NCBI GenBank assembly: GCA_014361245.1
Contig: JACIWB010000001.1
Coordinates: 70,622-130,720, forward strand
DNA: 60,099 bases
From: Thermoplasmatales archaeon
Lineage (GTDB): Archaea; Thermoplasmatota; E2; UBA202; JdFR-43
Reading direction: 5' to 3'
Within the stretch, counting starts at the first letter, position 1, and each line of letters opens with the position of its first letter. The notes under the pieces were generated by a model. That model had not been told where the DNA came from and did no database searches. It saw only the letters and a list, made by a program, of their open reading frames with translations. Shown piece after piece: positions 31,791 through 43,145 of the stretch. Made by a program: the position numbers and the translations under genes.

Positions 31791-32690
31791 GGTCCGTAGA
31801 ACAAAAGAAAAAGATTAAATTTCTTTATTTATTTTAAAAGGAGGGAATGGGATGAACTGGAAAGAAACAGATAAAAGATTAATTGAATTTGGAAAAGAAA
31901 TGGTAGAGGGAGCATGCAATGCTCTAAAAATAGATGAGGAAAAATGGAAAAAAGAATTGGAAGAGATGAATAAAGGGAAAAGAGGAGCACAATATAAAAT
32001 ACCTGCTTCTTTAATTTCAATGGCCTCAGCTTTCTACACATTTTTACCCTATCGCGAATTAGCAGGCTTGATTAACTCCTTGTTTGGAAAAAATTTTCAT
32101 AGATTCAACAGGTTTTTCAATAATAAGAAAAGGAAATTGGAAGACAATAAAATTTAAGGAAAAAAACACTAGAAAATGGTATAAGCTCCATAAATTATGC
32201 AATAGCAAAGGAGAAATAGTAGCTTTTGCCATAACTGAAGGAGATGTAAATGATTCCTCTCTTTTTGAAGATTTTATAGAGCATATACCCGCTGGCTCTA
32301 CAATTTATGGAGATAAAGCATATTTTTCAAGAAAGAATTATAATATTGCTGAAAAGAAGGGAATAATATTTCATTCCCCTCCTAAGAAAAATGCTTTAGC
32401 TAAATGTAGGGGAAGTAAAGAATTTGCAGAAGAAGTTAAATTGTATAATAGGATATGAAAAATGGGCAGAAATTATAGAGAAAGATTTAACAAAGAATAT
32501 GTTTTTTCAAGATTGAAAACAATATTTGGAGAAAACATAAGAGCAATTACTCTTACTGGAATTGCTGTTACTCTCATGAACATGATTACTTTGTGCAATA
32601 AAGTAATTTAAAAAATTAACTTTAAGAAATAAGCAAAAATGATTAAAGGCAAAAATAGCAGGAATTTATCTTTATTTATTCTACATGCCC
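31791..32690 (+). mobile_element. IS5-superfamily insertion sequence (~0.9 kb) with imperfect ~20-bp terminal inverted repeats; transposase inactivated
   Basis: The left end is GGTCCGTAGAACAAAAG (31791) and the right-end reverse complement is GGGCATGTAGAATAAATAAA (32690..32671). A second left end, GGTCTTGTAGAATAAAAG at 35353, matches 16/20. The element starts 10 nt after the glnA stop. Confidence 0.7.
31852..32611 (+). pseudogene. IS5-type DDE transposase, disrupted by one +1 frame change at an A6T4 run (~32087-32096) and one in-frame TGA (32456-32458)
   Basis: The DDE landmarks are split over three pieces: FIDSTGFSI, TIYGDKAYFSRKNY and, after the TGA, KMGRNYRERFNKEYVFSRLKTIFGENIRA (the Y..R..E..F..LK motif). 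The last segment is in the same frame as 32084..32458. Confidence 0.75.
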
Positions 32691-33239: not shown

Positions 33240-35279
33240 TTAACTGCAAAAATCATAATTTTGATCTGTTACATGCGAAATCTGTGTTAGGATTCGGAAG
33301 TATTGTGATTGCTGCAATAGATAATAATACTCCAGAACAGCAGGTAAATTGAGGTTGAAATACTCAGTAAATAACTTAACTATAAAATAGACTGACCCCC
33401 CCCAATAATAGTAGGGTACAGTCATCTCTAAATAGCCCAGTACAGTCTCTCCTCTACTATCCTTTACTGCAACGCAAATTTCCCGAATGCCAGGTGTTTC
33501 ATAGGAAACTTTAATAGTGTTGTTTTCTAACCAATCTGTATCCCATCCGTCTGGATTAAGAAGGTGGTTAAAGTTCCATCTATAAATATATGGTGGTTTA
33601 CCCCCATATGCAACTGCCTTTAAAGTTACTGTTTGACCGACTTTTATTTTTTCAGGACCCTCTATATGAACACCCATAGGAGGATAATCTATTGAAACAG
33701 TGGTTGAATCTATATCATAATCTCCTTCATTATCATACACGCGCAATTTAACAGTATACCTGCCTATCTGAGTATATTTATATGTGGGTTTATCACCTAT
33801 GTCATTATGCCAATTATCACCATCATAGAACATCCAATCATACCGATCAATGCAGCACCCGTTTTCATCATTATCATGGCTTTTTGCCCCGTTAAAATGA
33901 ACATATTGATTGATATATCCATAGTAAGGTCCCCCGGCATCAGCTGTTGGCGGATTCCTTTTTTCAATCACTGTAACGTTTAATCCAGAGGACCAGTCAC
34001 TTTCGCCATACGCATCTTTTGCTTTAACCTTGATAGTGTAAGTTCCTATATTGGTCCATTGATGAGTAAGAGTTTTTGGCACTCCTTGATCACATTTTTC
34101 TGTCCAACCACTATCGGTTCCATCTCCCCAGTCAAACAAATATTTAACAGTATCTCCTTCATAATCATAGGCTGTAGCTGAATACTCATATTCCTGATTT
34201 GTATGTACTTCTGTTGGCCCAGTAGGTGGAAGGGGTATGCCCGGAGGAGAATTGATAATGTTGATTCGGATTTTACCTGTTTTGTTACCGTAACTAGAGT
34301 TTATATAGATATTCCCTTCATGTAATCCATATCCTAACCTCGATGTATTCACTACAACAGCCCCAGGCCAAACAAAAGAGCGTGGCGCTGGTGCATATGG
34401 AGGGAATACACTCATCCAATCACTGTCATCGCTAGTTTTAAAATAAAGTACACCTATTCCCCCATTCCAAACACTAAAGTTGAAAACATAATATTGGTCT
34501 TTTAGGCAATCCCCAAAATCATGATCTGGCGGATTTGGAGATACTCGAAGAAGAGGAGATTTGGAGTTATCTGGTTGTATTGAAACATAATTCAATTTTC
34601 CCACGGTGTCGGCAACACAAGACTGAAAGCTTGCCAGATAACCTGCAACAAGCGGATAGCATATTATGCCAGCTTGAATTTTAATGTTTTTTCCTTCTTC
34701 AACATAAACTGGTGATGAACTTATATGTACGTTTCCATCATAGTTTGTATTAAAATAGTTAAATGGCATAGCATTAATAGCCTCAACAATTTGTTCATAT
34801 GCAAACAAAACTTCATTAGCTTCGGTATCTATTATATTAAAAAATACCTTTATCGTAAAAACTCCTACAGTCTCCGTTCCCCCTCCAGCTAAGTTTACCC
34901 AGCCAGAGTAATCATAATCGAATGTAAACGTAACATAATCATTATCAGTCGGATACCAATTCACTACATTCCAACATGCCTGATAACCACTCAGCACACC
35001 AACAACAGCTGATGCACAGTTGGTAACAATTCTTACATCGTTTAGTGTGCCTTCTTCCCATCCTAGATCCCACCCTACCGCACCTCCAATATTCCTGTCC
35101 GAGTTCCAACCATCCCAGGGAGGATACAAAGTATCTTCTGATAAGTCACTACTATTACTTGCATTAGATATACCTATAAAAAATCTTCCATGATTATTCT
35201 CTGTATTTACGTTTATGGTGCTGTTGTAAATAATCATCAGCAGTAAACATATCAATACTCCCCATATTTTACTTTTCAC
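33240..35279 (-). CDS. Secreted PKD-domain surface protein (679 aa in track; true 3' end uncertain)
   Basis: It has the signal peptide MKSKIWGVLICLLLMIIY. PKD-type modules include YLFDWGDGTDSGWTE..THQWTNIGTYTIKVKAKDAYGESDWSS and YDWMFYDGDNWHNDIGDKPTYKYTQIGRYTVKLRVYDNEG. The last ~45 codons overlap the integrase fragment and read like non-coding read-through. Confidence 0.75.
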   Translation of the reverse strand: MKSKIWGVLICLLLMIIYNSTINVNTENNHGRFFIGISNASNSSDLSEDTLYPPWDGWNSDRNIGGAVGWDLGWEEGTLNDVRIVTNCASAVVGVLSGYQACWNVVNWYPTDNDYVTFTFDYDYSGWVNLAGGGTETVGVFTIKVFFNIIDTEANEVLFAYEQIVEAINAMPFNYFNTNYDGNVHISSSPVYVEEGKNIKIQAGIICYPLVAGYLASFQSCVADTVGKLNYVSIQPDNSKSPLLRVSPNPPDHDFGDCLKDQYYVFNFSVWNGGIGVLYFKTSDDSDWMSVFPPYAPAPRSFVWPGAVVVNTSRLGYGLHEGNIYINSSYGNKTGKIRINIINSPPGIPLPPTGPTEVHTNQEYEYSATAYDYEGDTVKYLFDWGDGTDSGWTEKCDQGVPKTLTHQWTNIGTYTIKVKAKDAYGESDWSSGLNVTVIEKRNPPTADAGGPYYGYINQYVHFNGAKSHDNDENGCCIDRYDWMFYDGDNWHNDIGDKPTYKYTQIGRYTVKLRVYDNEGDYDIDSTTVSIDYPPMGVHIEGPEKIKVGQTVTLKAVAYGGKPPYIYRWNFNHLLNPDGWDTDWLENNTIKVSYETPGIREICVAVKDSRGETVLGYLEMTVPYYYWGGSVYFIVKLFTEYFNLNLPAVLEYYYLLQQSQYFRILTQISHVTDQNYDFCS

Positions 35280-36002: not shown

Positions 36003-36545
36003 TCACTTTACATCAAACAACTTCCTTATTTTCGCCAAATCATGATAACTCCACACTTTCTTATTTATCCTTTCCAATAATGCTTCCATTGCTTCCTCCT
36101 TCTTTTCAGGAATAAAAGCAATTCCTTTTCCCTTTACCCTCACCCATTGTATCTTTGGAAAGTGCTTTCTTAAAATGTAAACCTTTGTAGATGGATTTTT
36201 TGCATTGGTAAAAACATATCCTTTCTCCATTATTTCCTTCAACATTTCCCATGTTCTCTCGCCCAAGGTTTTGTTCCTCACTTTTATGTCTGAAGTATAT
36301 TTTATCACGATACAATAAGGAATGCCAAGTCTTCTTGCTACCTCTGCCTTGCAGCCCAATTCACGAACCATTTTCCTTATTTGCTCCACTTTTTCCTTTG
36401 TGTAAATATACCTTCTTGGAATATCTTTTGTAAAATGCTTCACAAGTCTGTAACTTATTTTCAATTCACGAGAAACTTGTGTTTTTGGCTTTCCAGATAA
36501 AACTTCATCCCTAATGCGGTTTATCAAATCTAAGGTTATTTGCAT
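36003..36545 (-). CDS. Hypothetical DNA-binding protein with two tandem helix-turn-helix-like units
   Basis: The internal repeat is GKPKTQVSRELKISYRLVKHFTKDI versus GCKAEVARRLGIPYCIVIKYTSDI. No family is recognised. Confidence 0.6.
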   Translation of the reverse strand: MQITLDLINRIRDEVLSGKPKTQVSRELKISYRLVKHFTKDIPRRYIYTKEKVEQIRKMVRELGCKAEVARRLGIPYCIVIKYTSDIKVRNKTLGERTWEMLKEIMEKGYVFTNAKNPSTKVYILRKHFPKIQWVRVKGKGIAFIPEKKEEAMEALLERINKKVWSYHDLAKIRKLFDVK

Positions 36546-36731
36546 TAATTAAAAATAAGCGATGCGGTTGTATATAAGGATTGTGGACTAAAATTTATAA
36601 AATAATTAATAACTCATAATTTATGAAACATATTTCATGCAATTAATGCACATATATTAAGTAAGAAAGTCTTGGAATGTTGTAAGTTATCCAAAATGGT
36701 AGGATTTATAAATAACAAGATAATTTTTTTT

Positions 36732-37499
36732 ATGCAAGGATTTGACGAAATAGTGGAAAAATTAAAGAAGATTAAAGAAAAGGGATTTGTTAAAACACAT
36801 AGAGCAGGCGATACTGGTGTTGGAAAAACTTTAGAAGATTTGTTAGGCATAAAAGAAAATAATGTGCCAGGTCCGAATGCCGAATTTATTGAACTAAAAT
36901 CAGCGAGAAAAAATACATCAAGCATGCTTACATTATTCACTAAACCACCTTTGCCTAAAAGCACAAATTCTAAACTTCTTCAAGAATTTGGATATGTTAC
37001 AAAAGATAGCAAAGGTAGAAAACGGTTAGAAACAACTGTAAATGCTGTAAGATATAACACCCTTCGAGGAGGAGTAGGTTTTAAAATAGACATTAAGAGA
37101 GATAGAATAGAGCTTGTGACAAAAGGGAGAGGAAAACCAGGATTACAAAATTTTTTTAACAATATCGCTAAAAGAGAAAGCGAAGAGGAAAGAGTTCTTG
37201 GATATTGGAAATATGATATACTAAAAAATAGTTTTGAAAGAAAATTACCACAAGTAATGTACGTTAAAGCAGAAGCAAGAGGTAAAGGTAGTGAAGAGGA
37301 ATTTTGGTATAATGAAGCATGGCTGTTAAGTGGGTTTGATTTCAAAGGTTTCAAAGAATTGCTCAAGGAAGGAGTTATTTTAGTTGATATAAGAATAGGA
37401 CAATATCCTGATGGACGACCACACGACCATGGAACGGCTTTTAGAGTTTTCAAAAATAATTTGGACAGATGTTTTAAAAACAGAATAAGGATAATATAA
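36732..37499 (+). CDS. Type II restriction endonuclease, MvaI/BcnI family (MutH-like)
   Basis: THRAGDTGVGKTLEDLLGIKENNVPGPNAEFIELKSARKNTSSMLTLFTK and DGRPHDHGTAFRV resemble the BcnI/MvaI landmarks as I remember them (GDLGEFELKG..LTLF..HDRGPHLRI). Start taken at ATG 36732 (MQGFDEIVEKL); the track ORF starts at 36672. Confidence 0.7.
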   Translation: MQGFDEIVEKLKKIKEKGFVKTHRAGDTGVGKTLEDLLGIKENNVPGPNAEFIELKSARKNTSSMLTLFTKPPLPKSTNSKLLQEFGYVTKDSKGRKRLETTVNAVRYNTLRGGVGFKIDIKRDRIELVTKGRGKPGLQNFFNNIAKRESEEERVLGYWKYDILKNSFERKLPQVMYVKAEARGKGSEEEFWYNEAWLLSGFDFKGFKELLKEGVILVDIRIGQYPDGRPHDHGTAFRVFKNNLDRCFKNRIRII

Positions 37500-38375
37500 T
37501 TAATAGGGCGGTTTCCAGAAATCCAAAATATATTCAAAGGTTGTTCCAAGAGTGATATAGTTACTCGGGTAGCCAAATATACCAACCTGATTTACTAAGT
37601 TTCTTCTATCCCATATAATAGTGTTTCTAAACTCATAACCTACTTTTTCTAACTCTTTTATCACATAAATATGAATAGGTATTCTTTTGTTTTCCCACCA
37701 TAAATCATTTACATTTATAATGTTATGGGCTTTTGTTTTAAGAAGAGGTAAAATGCCTTTATAAATTTCCCCCAATACTTTTGCGTATTTTTTTGGTTTC
37801 ATGATTCCTAAATCTCTTGGGTCATTAGAATATTGCTGAACTTCAAGATAATATTCATTTTCTCTTAAATCTCCTCTTAAACTTTTATTTAGTCTCGGTC
37901 TGTTTAGCATATTAGCATATGGAGGGGATGTAACCGAAAGAGCAACAGTTTCTTCTTCTAAATATTGAGGGATATTATGAGCATCATCACATATTGCGAT
38001 TTGTTGGCTGTTTCCTACTAATCTTTGTTGTGATAATCTCTTTTTAGCAAAATCAATGTAATCTTTCTTTAAATCAAAGCCAACCGCATTTCTATCTAAA
38101 TCTCTCGCAGCAATTAGTGTTGTTCCTATTCCTACAAAAGGGTCTAAAACAAGCTCTCCTCTATGAGTAAGAAGCTCAATACATTTCTTTGGTAATCCAA
38201 TCGGAAAGACTGCTGGATGGATTTTTTTATCTCTTATATCTCTCCTTTCGTAATAGAACTCCCAAATTGCTACTTGACCTTTGACCCAATCTTTTGGCTT
38301 AATACAGCTTATATAGTTGGGTGGGCAGTTGCATGTTCTTTGGTAGTTTATTTTTAGTTTTTCAATCATCCTCAA
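37500..38375 (-). CDS. DNA methyltransferase, N4/N6 (PF01555-like) family, probably N4-cytosine
   Basis: Motif I is LVLDPFVGIGTTLIAA, preceded by HPAVFPIGLP, and motif IV is TSPPY (SPPY is typical of m4C enzymes). The gene is tail-to-tail with the endonuclease gene, with no intergenic nucleotide. Confidence 0.85.
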   Translation of the reverse strand: MRMIEKLKINYQRTCNCPPNYISCIKPKDWVKGQVAIWEFYYERRDIRDKKIHPAVFPIGLPKKCIELLTHRGELVLDPFVGIGTTLIAARDLDRNAVGFDLKKDYIDFAKKRLSQQRLVGNSQQIAICDDAHNIPQYLEEETVALSVTSPPYANMLNRPRLNKSLRGDLRENEYYLEVQQYSNDPRDLGIMKPKKYAKVLGEIYKGILPLLKTKAHNIINVNDLWWENKRIPIHIYVIKELEKVGYEFRNTIIWDRRNLVNQVGIFGYPSNYITLGTTFEYILDFWKPPY

Positions 38376-38544
38376 TCCTCCTAGGATTTACCTCAATAAT
38401 CATTTTATTACTTTTAACTTTTAATATCCATTCCAACTCATCTCCTTCTTTTAAACCAAATTGCTTTACAATGCTAATTGGGATAGTAGTTCTTAATGAA
38501 TTTCCTGTTGTAGATGCTTTTGAAATAATTGTTTTAAATCCCAT
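38362..38544 (-). CDS. AbrB/SpoVT/MazE-type swapped-hairpin DNA-binding protein
   Basis: GNSLRTTIPISIVKQFGLKEGDELEW is the AbrB-like looped-hinge motif. The 3' end overlaps the methyltransferase start by 14 nt. Start taken at internal ATG 38544 (MGFKTII). Confidence 0.65.
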   Translation of the reverse strand: MGFKTIISKASTTGNSLRTTIPISIVKQFGLKEGDELEWILKVKSNKMIIEVNPRRIEDD

Positions 38545-38772
38545 TTTAATCAAATATAAAATACAATTCAAAATATAAATTTTTTGGAAAAAAAATTTGT
38601 AATAAAAGTTACCTAAAAATTTATACGCCTGATTGCATAAATTCCTTTGAGTAAAATATTTGATAAGGGCGCCAGTAGATGAGCAAAATTTTAAGGATTT
38701 CTAAGTGGAAATGAAGAAATAAAAGAATTTAATATAGTAAATTTTATAAATTAAATTCTTTTTATAAAATAT

Positions 38773-39081
38773 ATGATTAAAAATATTTCAAAAGAAATTT
38801 TAATCAGAAAATCTTTACAGTATATGCAAAATATTCACAAGCTATTAGGACAAAAATATGTTCGACTAATTTTGGAGGAATTAGAGAAAGATGATAAAAG
38901 TTTTAGTGAAATTGCTTATAACGTTGTAAAAAATACCGCTATGGCAAACAACACTCTGAAAAAACTCCTTGCAGAGAATTTCGTAAAGAAAAACAATAAA
39001 GGTAGAAAAACAATATATTCTATTACGGAAAAAGGTAAAGAATTGCTAAATTATATTAGGGTTGGTGATAAATTTGAATGA
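38773..39081 (+). CDS. Small winged-helix transcriptional regulator
   Basis: RLILEELEKDDKSFSEIAYNVVKNTAMANNTLKKLLAENFVKKNNKGRKTIYSITEKGKELL shows an HTH followed by a wing (K.GR...Y.iTekG). Confidence 0.65.
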   Translation: MIKNISKEILIRKSLQYMQNIHKLLGQKYVRLILEELEKDDKSFSEIAYNVVKNTAMANNTLKKLLAENFVKKNNKGRKTIYSITEKGKELLNYIRVGDKFE

Positions 39082-40045
39082 TTATATTTTATTAAAAAAA
39101 GTGAAAATAAAATTTCAGGAAAGAAAGTTAATTAATGGAGAAACAAAAATTCTTCCTATACAAGTAGGAGATGGCTCAATAATAAAATTGTTTGATAAAA
39201 CTCCATATCCTAAAAAAGAGAATGATGTTGTGTGTCCTCATTTTATTGAATTGAAATGGGCTAATGGATGCAATTTCAACTGTGCATGGTGCTATTTAAA
39301 TGGAACTTTTAGATTTAGACCAAATGGAAAAAAGCCATATGCAAAAAATATCGAAAAAGTTAAATCACATCTTTTATCCTTTTTCGAGCAGGTAAAAAAA
39401 CCTTATGTTTTAAACAGCGGAGAAATATCAGACAGCTTGGTTTTTGAAGGAACTGAATATGCAATTACAAAAACTATAATCCCTCTTTTCTTACAGCAAG
39501 ATAAACATAAGTTGTTAATACTTACAAAATCAGTAGATATAAATGACTTACTCAAAGTTCCATCCGACAAAATAATAGTAAGTTATAGCATAAATGCGGA
39601 AGAAGTAGCAAGACGGTGGGAAAAAGCTCCATCAATAGAAAAAAGATTAAAGGCAATAAGCATTCTTCAATCTGCTGGTTTTGAAATAAGATTAAGAATA
39701 GACCCATTAGTTTCTATTGAAAATTGGAAGGATTGTTATGGTAGATTAATTGAGGAAATGATTAATAAATATGAAATAAATCCATCAAGAATAACTATTG
39801 GCTCTTTGCGTGGGCTCCAAACAACTATTCAACACTCTTTGGATAAATCATGGGTTGTTTATCTAAAAGAAAGCACAAATTGGGGTAAAAGAATTGATTT
39901 TGATAGCAGGTTTAAGATGTATTCATTCATTATTGAAAAGCTGGAAGGAGAGGGGATTAGAAGCATAGCATTCTGCAAGGAAACAATAAAAATGTGGAAT
40001 AGTTTAGGAAAGGATTATAAAAAGATTGAATGCAATTGTTTATGA
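39062..40045 (+). CDS. Radical-SAM protein, SPL/COG1533-like (the three-Cys-motif partner of the adjacent TcmP-like gene)
   Basis: A CxxxCxxC motif is present in LKWANGCNFNCAWCYLNGTF (~39269-39293). The size (327 aa) and TIM-barrel-like alternation fit. The start overlaps the wHTH gene by 20 nt. Confidence 0.65.
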   Translation: MVINLNDYILLKKVKIKFQERKLINGETKILPIQVGDGSIIKLFDKTPYPKKENDVVCPHFIELKWANGCNFNCAWCYLNGTFRFRPNGKKPYAKNIEKVKSHLLSFFEQVKKPYVLNSGEISDSLVFEGTEYAITKTIIPLFLQQDKHKLLILTKSVDINDLLKVPSDKIIVSYSINAEEVARRWEKAPSIEKRLKAISILQSAGFEIRLRIDPLVSIENWKDCYGRLIEEMINKYEINPSRITIGSLRGLQTTIQHSLDKSWVVYLKESTNWGKRIDFDSRFKMYSFIIEKLEGEGIRSIAFCKETIKMWNSLGKDYKKIECNCL

Positions 40046-40954
40046 TGAAAATTCATCCAATAGTTTTATTCCTTTTTCTTTTGCTATAGCCTTTTTATAA
40101 AATTTAAAATTTTCTTTCACCCATTCATCCTCTTTTATCTTCTTTATATAGGGTTCGAATTTCTTAGAAATTATTTTATAGGCATCTGGAACAGAAGTCG
40201 CAAAAATAAGATAATATATCACATTATCAGCGGTTGTTTGATTAATATTGAAATAAACTGTATCATATCCTAATCTGCTTAGTTGAGAGATAAAAATATC
40301 ACAAATTGCTTGATGAAATTTTTTCCCATTTCTATCTATCAACCATTTTCTCCACTCTTGTGTTCCTATTGCCTTGTCTACACTACATAAATACTCATTT
40401 TTCTTTGCTTCTAAAAGATTTTTTCTTTTAGATTGTTTAATATATTGTTGCATAGTGTAGGTCATAAGAGTTATTATCAATTCTGGTTTTCTAATATAAT
40501 CGGGGGAAGAAAAAGAATGACTGCTTATTTCCTTAATTGTTGAGAAATAGAGATGATTATGATTTGAAGGGTCGAGAAAGAATATACTCCATTCGTTGGA
40601 AGGAATTAATTTTAGAACTTTTTTATATACAACATTTGTGTCTTCATTAAAAATCTTTAGAACATATTCGTTATACGGCTCTAAAGCTATTTTTAAATTG
40701 TTAATTTTTGAGGCATCTATATCATTAAATATACATTTCAAATATAGGTTTTCTTTTTTTGCGTATTCAAGAAGACTAAAGTAAGGAGGGGCCCATTTCT
40801 GCAAGGGTGCTCTATTACATTTACATATTCCATCCCCGGCATACAAATCCACATAAAATAATTTTTTATTTTTGCCTTTCATAACATTTCTACATATCCT
40901 AAAGTAACACCCAAGAATCCTATGTTTTAAAGATGTATGGGGTTTCACTTCCAT
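40040..40954 (-). CDS. TcmP-like protein (three-Cys-motif partner protein family, function unknown; Rossmann/MTase-like motifs)
   Basis: The N-terminus KPHTSLKHRILGCYFRICRNVMK..KKLFYVDLYAGDG and the later IFFLDPSNH match my recollection of TIGR04474. The 3' end overlaps the rSAM gene 3' end by 6 nt. Confidence 0.5.
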   Translation of the reverse strand: MEVKPHTSLKHRILGCYFRICRNVMKGKNKKLFYVDLYAGDGICKCNRAPLQKWAPPYFSLLEYAKKENLYLKCIFNDIDASKINNLKIALEPYNEYVLKIFNEDTNVVYKKVLKLIPSNEWSIFFLDPSNHNHLYFSTIKEISSHSFSSPDYIRKPELIITLMTYTMQQYIKQSKRKNLLEAKKNEYLCSVDKAIGTQEWRKWLIDRNGKKFHQAICDIFISQLSRLGYDTVYFNINQTTADNVIYYLIFATSVPDAYKIISKKFEPYIKKIKEDEWVKENFKFYKKAIAKEKGIKLLDEFSS

Positions 40955-40963
40955 ACATATCCC

Positions 40964-41158
40964 TTATTTCTTTTTTCTGGTTTTCCATGCTTTTTTTGCT
41001 GCCTCGCTCCTCTTTTTTCTGTTAGTTTCTATCCATAGTATTATGGCGTCTTCTAAAGCTTTCTTAAGATTTCCTTTTTTCATGCCTTTTTGTCTATATA
41101 CTTCTTCTCTGAACTCCTTTTCCAACTCATCAGATAATATTACATCTATTCTACCCAT
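40964..41158 (-). CDS. Ribbon-helix-helix (CopG/MetJ-like) protein with basic tail
   Basis: MGRIDVILSDELEKEFREEVYRQKGMKKGNLKKALEDAIILWIE is a beta-strand plus two helices, followed by RKKRSEAAKKAWKTRKKK. The gene lies 10 nt upstream of the TcmP-like gene. The internal ATG at 41158 is preferred over the track start at 41212. Confidence 0.6.
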   Translation of the reverse strand: MGRIDVILSDELEKEFREEVYRQKGMKKGNLKKALEDAIILWIETNRKKRSEAAKKAWKTRKKK

Positions 41159-41316
41159 AACACCAATATTTAATTTTAGAATATAAACTTTTCTGTATAT
41201 CCACTTAACCACAAAATTTATAAACTCTAAAAATATTAACTTATGTGGATATACACAATTAAAAGATATACCGCCACAGGCTCCTCCTAATCCCCAGCCT
41301 GTGACGGGAGGAACTC

Positions 41317-42900
41317 ATGTCCTCAAAAAATAATAAAAGCAGGATTAATAAGCATAACGCCGTATTCATAGATACAAGAGTAAAGAAAAGGATAGATAAC
41401 AGCATCTACTCTATTTTTAAATACTCAACAGAAAATGAAATAAAAGTTGTAAATTTAATTTTACAACTTGATTTGGGTTTACTCAAGAAAAAGAAGTATA
41501 GAGAGATAAAGTATTCTTATGAAGGATTATTGAAAGCCGTTCTTTTGATGAAATTAAAGAATATAAAATTTATAACGGAATTGGTTGAATATCTCCAAAA
41601 CCATAAAAGGGAGGCAAAGAAACTAGGACTAAAACAAGTTCCAGATAGGAGAACATTCAGCTACTTCATTAATCATGTTTTGGATGATAAAACAAAAGCC
41701 ATGATTGATTATATAGCAAGAAAGATTATGGAGATTGCCGACAAATTTTCCATAGATTTGAATATTGAGCCAGCAATAGAAAAGCCAAAGAAGAAAGTGG
41801 CTAAAAGCACGATTTATCATAAAAAGAATAAAAAATCAAAGGAGTTAGCAAGGTTGCTTAAAAAGAAAATATCACCATTTTTAGAGTTAAATATAGGAAA
41901 AAATGCAGTCTATAAGAAAAATGATTTTGTTGACTTGTTAATCCATTTAGCATTAACCCAAGATTTTGCAGAAAATGGTTCAAAAACTCTGAGAGAAATT
42001 AGAAAATGTGTTCCAGATGCAGACACCTTGCTTTATCATTTAAAGAAATACAGTAATTTGAAGGATTTGCAGAGAATATTCACAATCATTTTTGAAAAGA
42101 TATGGGAAATGGCAAGAAAAGAGAATTTATTCAACCCCTATAGGAAATATGATGTTGCAATCGATTTTACAGATTGGTTATTTTATGGAGATAAAACAGC
42201 CCCTATGATTGTGGGAACAAAACCAAAGGATGGAACTGATAAGTGTTATAGATTTGCTACAATTAATATTGTTGAAGCAGATAGGAGATTTACTCTCCTT
42301 GCTTTACCAGTTGGTCACTTTGATAAAAAAGAAGATATTTTGGCAAAATTGATAGAATATGCAAAACAGAGGATAAGAATCAGGAAAGTTTATTTGGACA
42401 GAGGATTCTTTTCCACCAAATGCATTCAAACCCTCAATAAACACCACCTAAATTTCTTGATGCCATGCACTTCATATTCTACCGTCATTCATTTATTGAA
42501 AATATCGCCAGCTCCTTCTGTTGTAAAAGATTTTAGAATAGGAGATGTGCTAATAAATGTGGTAATTGTTGAGAGTGATGGAAAGAAATACGCTTTTGCA
42601 AGCAATGAAGACTGGGATGAAAATGATGTTGACTTGGCAGATAAAATTTTTAGGCAATACGGAAAAAGATGGGGAATTGAAACAAGTTATAGAGTCAAGA
42701 AACATTCATTTCGCCCAAAAACCACCTCAAAGAACTATCTCATAAGATTTTTTTATTTCATGTTCTCTGTTCTGATGTATAATCTCTGGATTTTATTGGA
42801 TATTATTCTTTGCATTCTCGTTTTTGGAATGAAAAAAGCAAGGCATATTATAACTTCAAAGTTATTTGCAACAATATTTTACAAGTCAGGAGATGGATAA
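41317..42900 (+). CDS. IS4-family DDE transposase (527 aa, apparently intact)
   Basis: The landmarks are VAIDFTDWLFYGD, VYLDRGFFS and YGKRWGIETSYRVKK (the Y-(2)-R-(3)-E-(6)-K signature). I could not define the element ends. Confidence 0.8.
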   Translation: MSSKNNKSRINKHNAVFIDTRVKKRIDNSIYSIFKYSTENEIKVVNLILQLDLGLLKKKKYREIKYSYEGLLKAVLLMKLKNIKFITELVEYLQNHKREAKKLGLKQVPDRRTFSYFINHVLDDKTKAMIDYIARKIMEIADKFSIDLNIEPAIEKPKKKVAKSTIYHKKNKKSKELARLLKKKISPFLELNIGKNAVYKKNDFVDLLIHLALTQDFAENGSKTLREIRKCVPDADTLLYHLKKYSNLKDLQRIFTIIFEKIWEMARKENLFNPYRKYDVAIDFTDWLFYGDKTAPMIVGTKPKDGTDKCYRFATINIVEADRRFTLLALPVGHFDKKEDILAKLIEYAKQRIRIRKVYLDRGFFSTKCIQTLNKHHLNFLMPCTSYSTVIHLLKISPAPSVVKDFRIGDVLINVVIVESDGKKYAFASNEDWDENDVDLADKIFRQYGKRWGIETSYRVKKHSFRPKTTSKNYLIRFFYFMFSVLMYNLWILLDIILCILVFGMKKARHIITSKLFATIFYKSGDG

Positions 42901-43145
42901 CATGATGCTTGCAGTTTGTGTTTTTTACAAAATATGTGTCTATTGTGAAGTAACATAATTTTGGTGGGATTTGCTGTTTTTAACGCAAATTGTTTTCTAT
43001 AATGTGGTTTTAATTCACTATTTTCCTTTTAATTTATGGTTAGATAATAGTATTATCTGCAAACCTTCATGGCGTTTTTATTGCACCTTCGGAACTACTG
43101 AATTTAATGGATAATTTTAAATATAAAATTTAATTCTGATAAAAG

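Follow-up and report, generated by a model that had tools for sequence, protein, structure and literature searches.

A predicted TcmP-family methyltransferase paired with a spore-photoproduct-lyase-like radical-SAM protein: a transposase-linked candidate base-modification module in a Thermoplasmatales archaeon

What is encoded by two gene pairs that converge tail to tail in the genome of a Thermoplasmatales archaeon, and do the two enzymes among them act together? The question concerns a stretch of 60,099 nt of contig JACIWB010000001.1 (called the window below), and within it positions 38,773 to 41,158. A preliminary description made from the sequence alone had proposed here a module for nucleic-acid modification, repair or defence, composed of a radical S-adenosylmethionine (rSAM) protein, a TcmP-like protein and one small DNA-binding protein for each. 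Our comparisons indicate that TcmP and the rSAM protein, which resembles spore photoproduct lyase (SPL), form a functional pair. The evidence supports a conserved unit in which a methyltransferase, a DNA-binding module and an rSAM enzyme work on one substrate. With moderate confidence, we read the module as a two-enzyme, two-step system for the modification of bases in nucleic acid, most likely DNA.

The four open reading frames (ORFs), with the motifs and overlaps ascribed to them, were all present in the ORF list:

38773-39081, plus strand: winged helix-turn-helix (wHTH) gene, 102 aa, taken from the ORF list and directly upstream of the rSAM gene.
39062-40045, plus strand: SPL-like rSAM gene, 327 aa, TTG start, containing WANGCNFNCAWCY.
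40040-40954, minus strand: TcmP gene, 304 aa, containing KPHTSLKHRILGCYF, LFYVDLYAGDG and FFLDPSNH.
40964-41158, minus strand: ribbon-helix-helix (RHH)-like small gene, 64 aa, basic, MGRIDVILSDELE...KRSEAAKKAWKTRKKK.

The wHTH and rSAM genes overlap by 20 nt, and the convergent rSAM and TcmP genes share 6 nt tail to tail (40040-40045). The RHH-like gene directly precedes the TcmP gene as proposed, but with a gap of 9 nt and not 10; its ORF extends in full over 40964-41212 (minus strand), the conserved start being M19 at 41158. These ORFs are not chance, since homologues exist at E 1e-100 or lower and the same genes occur in L150, an independent public assembly of the locus with identical gene calls, including the 64-aa small protein. 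GC content is 0.28-0.30 over 38-42 kb vs 0.32-0.38 on both sides.

In a scan of about 185,000 species-representative genomes, 204 carried the SPL-like rSAM protein; ORFs were called in the 80 rSAM loci that were kept, and these were searched with an iterated TcmP profile. A TcmP-like gene adjoined the rSAM gene in 60 of the 80 loci, which bears out the expectation that the pairing is conserved across genomes. In about 19 of these 60, the two were a single fused TcmP-(wHTH)-rSAM ORF of 580-737 aa; the rest were co-directional or convergent neighbours. All adjacent partners checked against NCBIfam scored above the TcmP cutoff, and the fused protein of locus L015 matched both TcmP (183 bits) and SPL. 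Pairwise distances of TcmP and rSAM were correlated (r = 0.42, 62 pairs, a value reached by none of 2000 Mantel permutations), with TcmP evolving much faster (mean distance 0.74 vs 0.43 for rSAM). A chance adjacency of two unrelated cassettes was rejected on account of the gene fusions.

Homologues of the rSAM protein number more than 1,240, at roughly 50-63% identity, and the rSAM loci are scattered patchily over many bacterial and archaeal phyla. Judged from the sequences collected, this distribution is like that produced by horizontal transfer and not that of a housekeeping tRNA- or rRNA-modifying enzyme, in agreement with the preliminary description. The hosts belong overwhelmingly to anaerobic lineages (Dehalococcoidia, Thermoplasmata, Bathyarchaeota, Zixibacteria, methanogens). 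Four IMG/VR contigs carry the rSAM-TcmP pair; over 7.5 kb, one of these "viral" contigs, L155, has 93% identity to L061, a contig from a Bathyarchaeota genome. In L061 (2090-5410), L095 (630-3632) and L155-L157, a single TcmP comes after, or converges with, a tandem pair of SPL-like rSAM paralogues. Positions 1-1307 of L035 resemble 6791-9150 of L023, from the same metagenome-assembled genome (MAG), with the TcmP domain cleanly deleted and a solo rSAM gene left between the same flanks. This suggests either that solo rSAM loci arise by loss of TcmP or that the two are co-binned strain variants.

The 304-aa protein is a member of the TcmP family, as had been proposed from its N-terminus and motifs, because its score of 111.2 bits against NCBIfam TIGR04474 (E 8e-32, profile positions 1-256 of 263) exceeds the cutoff of 53. 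It is a short form, with no match to the GMT-wHTH domain (PF22560), in a family of about 2,100 clusters at 50% identity (E <= 1e-3); its own subfamily holds about 36. Motifs I-IV are conserved (DL[YF]AGDG, FN[DE], DAN and LDP), and the AlphaFold2 (AF2) model, with a predicted local distance difference test score (pLDDT) of 90.7, has a class I Rossmann methyltransferase fold, in keeping with the earlier placing of VDLYAGDG and LDPS at methyltransferase motifs I and IV. TcmP is thus predicted to be a SAM-dependent Rossmann methyltransferase, the modelled fold and the motifs being those of an intact enzyme.

The best PDB match of the TcmP model was the DUF519/RlmJ structure 2oo3 (E 5e-8, TM-score 0.55/0.62), followed by E. 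coli RlmJ structures and then by Trm1 and other SAM methyltransferases; the RlmJ/DUF519 matches, 4blv and others included, lie at E 5e-8 to 1e-6 with TM-scores of about 0.5-0.6. Like RlmJ/DUF519, the 23S rRNA m6A2030 methyltransferase, TcmP has an N-terminal LKH helix, a D-x-x-A-G-x-G motif I and a D-P motif IV. Its motif IV, LDPSNH, however lacks the aromatic residue (DPSN vs DPPY), and RlmJ, unlike TcmP, is a housekeeping enzyme that works alone and has no rSAM protein for a partner. When the TcmP profile was aligned with E. coli RlmJ by hhalign, the result was not significant (probability 0.6%, 34 columns aligned); the likeness therefore lies at the level of the fold only, and homology in sequence was rejected. 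The TcmP profile searched against the PDB returned nothing meaningful.

The 327-aa protein had been said to recall the SPL/COG1533 branch of rSAM enzymes. It is indeed SPL-like, but it is not SPL proper. Pfam SPL (PF20903) matched in part (53.6 bits, gathering threshold 27, profile positions 83-253 of 338) and Radical_SAM (PF04055) scored 33.7 bits vs a threshold of 29.5, while the NCBIfam SPL equivalog (TIGR04070) gave 72 bits, below its cutoff of 400. The top six Foldseek matches of the AF2 model (pLDDT 83.7) in the PDB were all SPL (including 4rh0/4fhg; E 9e-11 to 2e-9), with TM-scores of 0.56-0.61 at about 19% identity and a profile match of E about 5e-17. RlmN/Cfr, MiaB and RimO were among the weaker structural matches. 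The cluster cysteines, C70-x3-C74-x2-C77, are invariant in 83 of 83 sequences, and C58, H60, E121, C305, C324 and C326 are kept in 82-83 of the 83.

In the profile alignment, the catalytic Cys140 of SPL (G. thermodenitrificans numbering; C140S in 4fhg) falls on the invariant E121 of LNSGELSD. Because a glutamate stands at this position the protein is SPL-like but not SPL: the candidate of a bona fide SPL repair enzyme was rejected, and SPL-type repair chemistry is unlikely. SPL is nevertheless the closest solved structure and shares with the window protein the cluster motif and, of the two radical-transfer tyrosines beside that motif, Tyr98, kept as Y78. Apart from Cys140, the window protein differs in having a tryptophan, W76, in place of Tyr96 (CAWCY vs CHYCY), and four extra invariant cysteines. 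Moreover, proteins of the window type are partnered with a methyltransferase, and their hosts are mostly non-sporulating anaerobes and archaea, unlike those of SPL. The four additional cysteines are compatible with the binding of a second metal centre, which the protein may carry, and together with the missing hydrogen-donor cysteine they argue, at the level of sequence, for a radical outcome other than SPL-type repair.

A precedent for an SPL-like protein acting on DNA in another way is gp53 of phage M6, which isomerises a substituent on thymidine in DNA; by its authors' account, no rSAM enzyme had before been found to install a DNA modification (PMC8989533). An SPL-like rSAM enzyme that acts on a base substituent put there by a partner enzyme is the logic that we propose for the window module. 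The partners of M6 gp53, however, are a kinase, an aGPT-Pplase and a pyridoxal-phosphate (PLP) enzyme and not a methyltransferase, and it belongs to virion DNA hypermodification clusters, whereas the window-type rSAM genes lie in cellular loci or those of mobile genetic elements. Nor is M6 gp53 detectably a close relative in sequence, as it was not recovered when a fused homologue was searched against phage genomes by tblastn.

The claim that each enzyme has its own small DNA-binding regulator was correct for one of the two: the RHH-like gene is conserved, but none of about 150 related loci contained a homologue of the wHTH gene. Homologues of the RHH-like gene (56-83% identity) occupy the same position in more than 20 loci. 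Their alignment has a mean column identity of 72% and an invariant C-terminal tail, KRSxAAKKAWxTR, and the protein is better conserved than TcmP. No family was matched by the product of 40964-41158 in Pfam and NCBIfam scans; its strand-helix-helix pattern, with weak best profile matches in the PDB (E 0.12-0.3) that include the SSV-RH E73 RHH protein, suggests a ribbon-helix-helix fold. The wHTH protein matched Pfam HxlR (30.8 bits, threshold 20.8) and HTH_45 (30.5 bits, threshold 25.5). In relatives, its slot holds AbrB-like, DUF2080, 94-aa, 64-aa or other small genes, the DUF2080 protein of L106 being a "putative transposon-encoded protein". The window wHTH gene is, from these comparisons, a lineage-specific occupant of a variable small-gene slot.

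DNA-binding domains also occur within the enzymes. GMT-wHTH was found in three places: C-terminally in long TcmP proteins, between the TcmP and rSAM parts of the fusions, and N-terminally in some solo rSAM proteins. That the wHTH is integral to long TcmP and to the fusions makes DNA binding probably a part of the enzymology and not only of autoregulation. In solo rSAM loci that lack TcmP, a small gene for a UPF0758_N domain (the helix-hairpin-helix, HhH, of the RadC N-terminus) lies directly upstream and overlaps the rSAM gene (a cluster in 7 loci, for example L037 7537-7953 and L051 7279-7605). A layout like that of controller proteins or toxin-antitoxin (TA) systems is present, with a small DNA-binding gene 5' of each enzyme gene and overlapping or abutting it.

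The module had been put forward as the window's best candidate for a previously undescribed system. This holds only in part, as the canonical pair is already listed among phage-defence candidates. TcmP takes its name from pairing with a three-Cys-motif rSAM protein (DUF5131 / phage Gp37-Gp68, PF07505), and PADLOC-DB v2 lists this pair as PDC-M30 and PDC-M41; component B is DUF5131 in both, while component A is a long TcmP in PDC-M30 and a short one in PDC-M41. Typical TcmP proteins (L047, L015, Gordonia gp42) match PDC-M41A/M30A; the SPL-like rSAM protein of L047 had no PADLOC match, while DUF5131 proteins scored 351-395 bits. PDC-M30/M41 are not discussed in the main text of the source preprint, and for TcmP, DUF5131, Gp37/Gp68, GMT-wHTH, COG1533/SplB and PDC-M30/M41 the literature searched gave incidental annotations only. 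No paper on TcmP or DUF5131 was found, nor a solved structure of DUF5131 or of a canonical TcmP. SPL and DUF5131 fall in the same megacluster at RadicalSAM.org (PMC9477430).

The window module resembles the canonical pair in its TcmP family member, tail to tail with an rSAM gene, and in mobile, plasmid, prophage and restriction-modification (R-M)-adjacent contexts. In Gordonia phages, a TcmP-GMT-wHTH "methyltransferase" (gp42) lies beside the immunity repressor, in the lysogeny module, and converges with a 4-nt overlap on the DUF5131 gene gp41, the same convergent overlapping geometry as in the window; the annotated record of a Mycolicibacterium plasmid has tcmP next to a gene for a "phage Gp37/Gp68 family protein". 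Unlike DUF5131 (about 250 aa, Cx7CxxC), the window partner is SPL-like, of about 330 aa, with CxxxCxxC and the extra cysteines, and unlike the canonical pair the module has a short TcmP, the RHH-like gene, a stand-alone wHTH gene and a co-diverging DDE transposase. TcmP thus takes several types of rSAM partner: SPL-like, DUF5131 (bona fide, at 335 bits, in L101) and an intermediate Radical_SAM/DUF5131-like form (L087, L088, L125), the last two types being seen in close relatives of the window's TcmP subfamily. In L108 (2078-2302) and L112 (6750-6974), only the region of an AbrB-like small gene beside an Eco57I-type IIG gene is shared, at 85% DNA identity. The rSAM partners there are SPL-like (335 aa) in L108 and DUF5131-like (230 aa) in L112; together with the shared region, this is evidence of partner swapping in a fixed frame.

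The module was said to lie between an MvaI/BcnI-type R-M system and an IS4 transposase. Both neighbours are there, but the transposase is closest to ISH3 (IS4-type, YREK) and, as its divergence is parallel to that of the module, it is not a mere neighbour. Two features make up this side of the locus:

41159-41316, no strand: intergenic region from which the RHH-TcmP operon and the transposase gene diverge, with a conserved hairpin at 41271-41307.
41317-42900, plus strand: DDE transposase gene, 527 aa, ISH3/IS4-related, with the YREK motif.

The transposase matched Pfam DDE_Tnp_1 (31 bits, threshold 23) and NCBIfam ISH3 (163 bits, below the cutoff of 225); its translation contains YGKRWGIETSYRVKK and the IS4-type YREK signature. 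The window shares this conserved neighbour, a transposase of about 525 aa transcribed divergently from the RHH-TcmP operon, with L001/L002, L041, L084, L086, L094, L106, L112 and L116. Its identity to the window protein tracks that of TcmP: 72% vs 71% in L084, and 52-54% vs about 53% in L001/L002/L041/L106/L112. DNA homology between the window and L084 (75.5%) runs unbroken from the rSAM gene through 41159-41316 and the transposase gene, and ends at the stop codon of the latter, at 42903. Read from these sequences, the transposase co-diverges with the module, and the unit is co-inherited with a transposase that looks catalytically intact. In other members of the window's TcmP subfamily, this place is taken by another DDE transposase, of 340-410 aa, while most rSAM-TcmP members, among them the fused forms and the Dehalococcoidia loci, have none.

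The hairpin at 41271-41307 is GC-rich (CCG-C-CACAGGCT...AGCCTGTG-A-CGG) in surroundings of about 30% GC, and immediately precedes the Shine-Dalgarno sequence and start codon of the transposase gene. It is found in the same place in all six loci with the ~525-aa transposase, with compensatory changes (CATGGGT/ACCCATG in L084) and minimum-free-energy (MFE) z-scores of -1.3 to -3.9. It may control translation of the transposase, or be a recognition element.

On the other side of the module lie the following genes:

36672-37499, plus strand: MvaI/BcnI-type restriction endonuclease (REase), Pfam MvaI_BcnI 181.6 bits, PADLOC REase_II.
37500-38375, minus strand: N4/N6 methyltransferase (MTase), Pfam N6_N4_Mtase 95.4 bits, PADLOC MTase_II.
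38362-38571, minus strand: MazE/AbrB-like small gene, 69 aa, Pfam MazE_antitoxin 39.2 bits.

The MazE/AbrB-like ORF, which overlaps the start of the N4/N6 MTase gene by 14 nt, looks as if it controls or regulates the MvaI/BcnI-type R-M system and does not look like a part of the TcmP module. The R-M system is itself a neighbour, whose membership in the module is only putative. Just upstream of it, a 180-aa protein with repeated HTH-like segments (36003-36545, minus strand) faintly resembles Cbp1, a protein that binds CRISPR repeats (E 0.005). Further out, 33240-35279 (minus strand) encodes a 679-aa predicted surface protein with PKD domains, by the annotation of the sister contig L150, which is unrelated to the module. 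A 124-aa fragment at 32084-32458 (plus strand) matches, at E 3e-13, the second type of DDE transposase (340-410 aa), companion of other TcmP modules, and adds to the signs that the stretch at roughly 32-43 kb is mobile or was acquired.

Among 129 neighbour proteins from 67 rSAM loci, the commonest functional class was R-M (Eco57I 8, N6_Mtase 7, ResIII 5, MmeI_Mtase 5, TaqI_C 4). A Type IIG or N6-MTase-like gene lay at most 400 nt from the module in 12 loci. These come from Chloroflexota, from Nitrospirota, from a bacterial MAG without classification and from metagenome contigs that belong to the window's TcmP subfamily, L108 among them; L112 has a Type IIG gene 165 nt past the partner operon. 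Some 10 loci of Dehalococcoidia (L047, L053, L057, L040, L034 and L045 among them) have the order Eco57I-like Type IIG R-M, TcmP, rSAM (L047 3354-8960), with an mtnA-like (IF-2B family) gene on one side of this block and, on the other, a gene like methylthioadenosine (MTA)/5'-deoxyadenosine phosphorylase (PNP_UDP_1). Such enzymes salvage SAM and radical-SAM by-products; the flanks could reflect a functional link or an integration hotspot.

What, then, would the module do? Four things make DNA the most probable substrate: a fold like that of SPL; accessory parts of the wHTH, HhH and RHH types; the settings in which the genes occur (R-M, prophage immunity, plasmids, transposases); and the precedent of M6 gp53. 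In the two-step reading, TcmP, with its D-P motif like that of amino-methyltransferases, would methylate a base. The rSAM enzyme would then apply its 5'-deoxyadenosyl radical to the same flipped-out nucleotide or to the new substituent, and the two would jointly yield a modified base that marks the DNA. Since the SPL hydrogen-atom-donor cysteine is missing, the radical intermediate has to be resolved in another way than by SPL-type repair. DNA targeting would be through the wHTH domain in most relatives and, in the window, in trans through the RHH-like protein and the local wHTH protein, both of which may also autoregulate the two convergent operons. That the module travels with a DDE transposase, often beside R-M genes, suggests self/non-self marking or protection of mobile DNA. 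More tentatively, TcmP and rSAM could write or erase a new DNA base mark by radical transformation of the installed methyl, possibly with a second metal cluster; under this doubtful extension, the mark would confer a mobile form of epigenetic immunity or of anti-restriction, carried along with DDE transposases and coupled to Type IIG R-M. What the comparisons show is the pairing, the fusions, the folds and the context; substrate, chemistry and biological role are what we infer from them.

Several observations weigh against the DNA-modification reading. No experiment or database entry names the substrate, and the closest folds to the TcmP model are those of RNA methyltransferases, RlmJ and Trm1. 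The PDC candidates are putative, not experimentally validated, and were found by "guilt-by-embedding" (PMC10855318). The window TcmP had no PADLOC match at E <= 0.01, the PDC-M30A/M41A models missing it, and the window rSAM matched only pVip (E 0.006) and no component B of PDC-M30/M41. Neither a nuclease nor another effector is part of the module, and it is thus not evident how it would defend a host by itself. The window wHTH protein showed no homology to the linker domains of the fusions by phmmer or hhalign, and such a relationship was therefore rejected. Many related loci have housekeeping flanks (mtnA, PNP, MnmA, RecR), and in the census such neighbours were also common (IF-2B 10, PNP_UDP_1 5, MnmA 3). 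R-M, defence and mobile genes are frequent neighbours too, in support of the proposed island context. No terminal inverted repeats above shuffled controls were found around the transposase alone or the whole unit, in the window and five homologous loci, so that mobility of the unit remains putative. A 33-nt AT-rich pair at 38749/43103 was rejected as terminal repeats, being indistinguishable from chance. Multi-copy evidence for transposition was not found either: the transposase is single-copy in the window, and "multiple copies" within single MAGs were rejected as transposition, since they share flanks and look like strain variants. Nevertheless, the preliminary description had named beforehand what would speak against it (no TcmP match, no conserved pairing, an rSAM protein of housekeeping type, homologous pairs mainly in core contexts), and none of this was found.

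Three other explanations were weighed, each of which fits fewer observations than the DNA-modification reading. The rSAM enzyme might instead reverse a DNA lesion (an alkyl or methyl adduct, or a cross-link) in anaerobes, as an O2-independent counterpart of AlkB/SPL. TcmP would then be a lesion-recognising or accessory protein, and the adjacency of MTases would mean repair of their off-target products. The solved structure nearest to the rSAM protein is that of a repair enzyme, the hosts are overwhelmingly anaerobic, the module recurrently adjoins R-M genes that contain a DNA methyltransferase, and its chromosomal position is stable in the Dehalococcoidia loci. Such a repair function is nonetheless unlikely: Cys140 has become an invariant glutamate, and a subunit for recognition alone would have no need of the SAM-binding and catalytic methyltransferase motifs, all of which TcmP keeps. 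Moreover, core repair genes do not usually show a patchy distribution, a transposase, sites on plasmids and in prophage immunity modules, or a PADLOC embedding signal.

The folds closest to TcmP would also fit a module in which it methylates, and the rSAM enzyme further modifies, an rRNA or tRNA base; carried on a mobile element, this could give resistance to a ribosome-targeting compound, as with Erm/Cfr. Mobile rRNA methyltransferases are a known class, and rSAM modifiers of RNA (RlmN/Cfr, MiaB, RimO) did appear among the structural matches. We consider this quite improbable, as the TcmP profile had no significant match to E. coli RlmJ, the rSAM protein finds its top structural and sequence matches in SPL, a DNA enzyme, rather than in RlmN or MiaB, the accessory domains (wHTH, HhH, RHH) are typical of binders of duplex DNA, and the neighbours are R-M and defence genes rather than genes for antibiotic biosynthesis or resistance. 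Least probable of all, and very improbable, is a selfish addiction or maintenance cassette of the transposon, which would make loss of the element costly in a modification-dependent way, with the RHH and wHTH proteins as antitoxin-like repressors and no benefit to the host. Co-divergence with a transposase that keeps its YREK signature, the "transposon-encoded" DUF2080 protein in the variable slot of L106, and the arrangement of a small DNA-binding gene against each enzyme gene, overlapping or adjoining it, which is also that of TA and controller systems, would all agree with it. No toxin-like domain is present, however, most family members do without a transposase, and neither terminal repeats nor multi-copy insertions were found.

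All together, the window holds an SPL-partnered, transposase-linked, archaeal variant, with DNA binding supplied in trans, of a pair already defined bioinformatically and flagged as a defence candidate. TcmP-rSAM pairs are widespread, on plasmids, in prophage immunity modules and beside R-M systems; current defence-finder models miss the SPL-partnered and archaeal variants. Handles for experiment are offered by the invariant E121, C58, C305, C324 and C326, by the conserved RHH partner and by the natural fused variants, which should express more easily. The architecture of the methyltransferase-wHTH-rSAM fusions and the SPL-like fold point to new DNA chemistry. To our knowledge, only SPL and phage M6 gp53 are rSAM enzyme types known to act on DNA. 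If the doubtful extension to a new DNA mark made by radical chemistry is true, the module would be the first cellular (non-virion) radical-SAM writer of a DNA modification.

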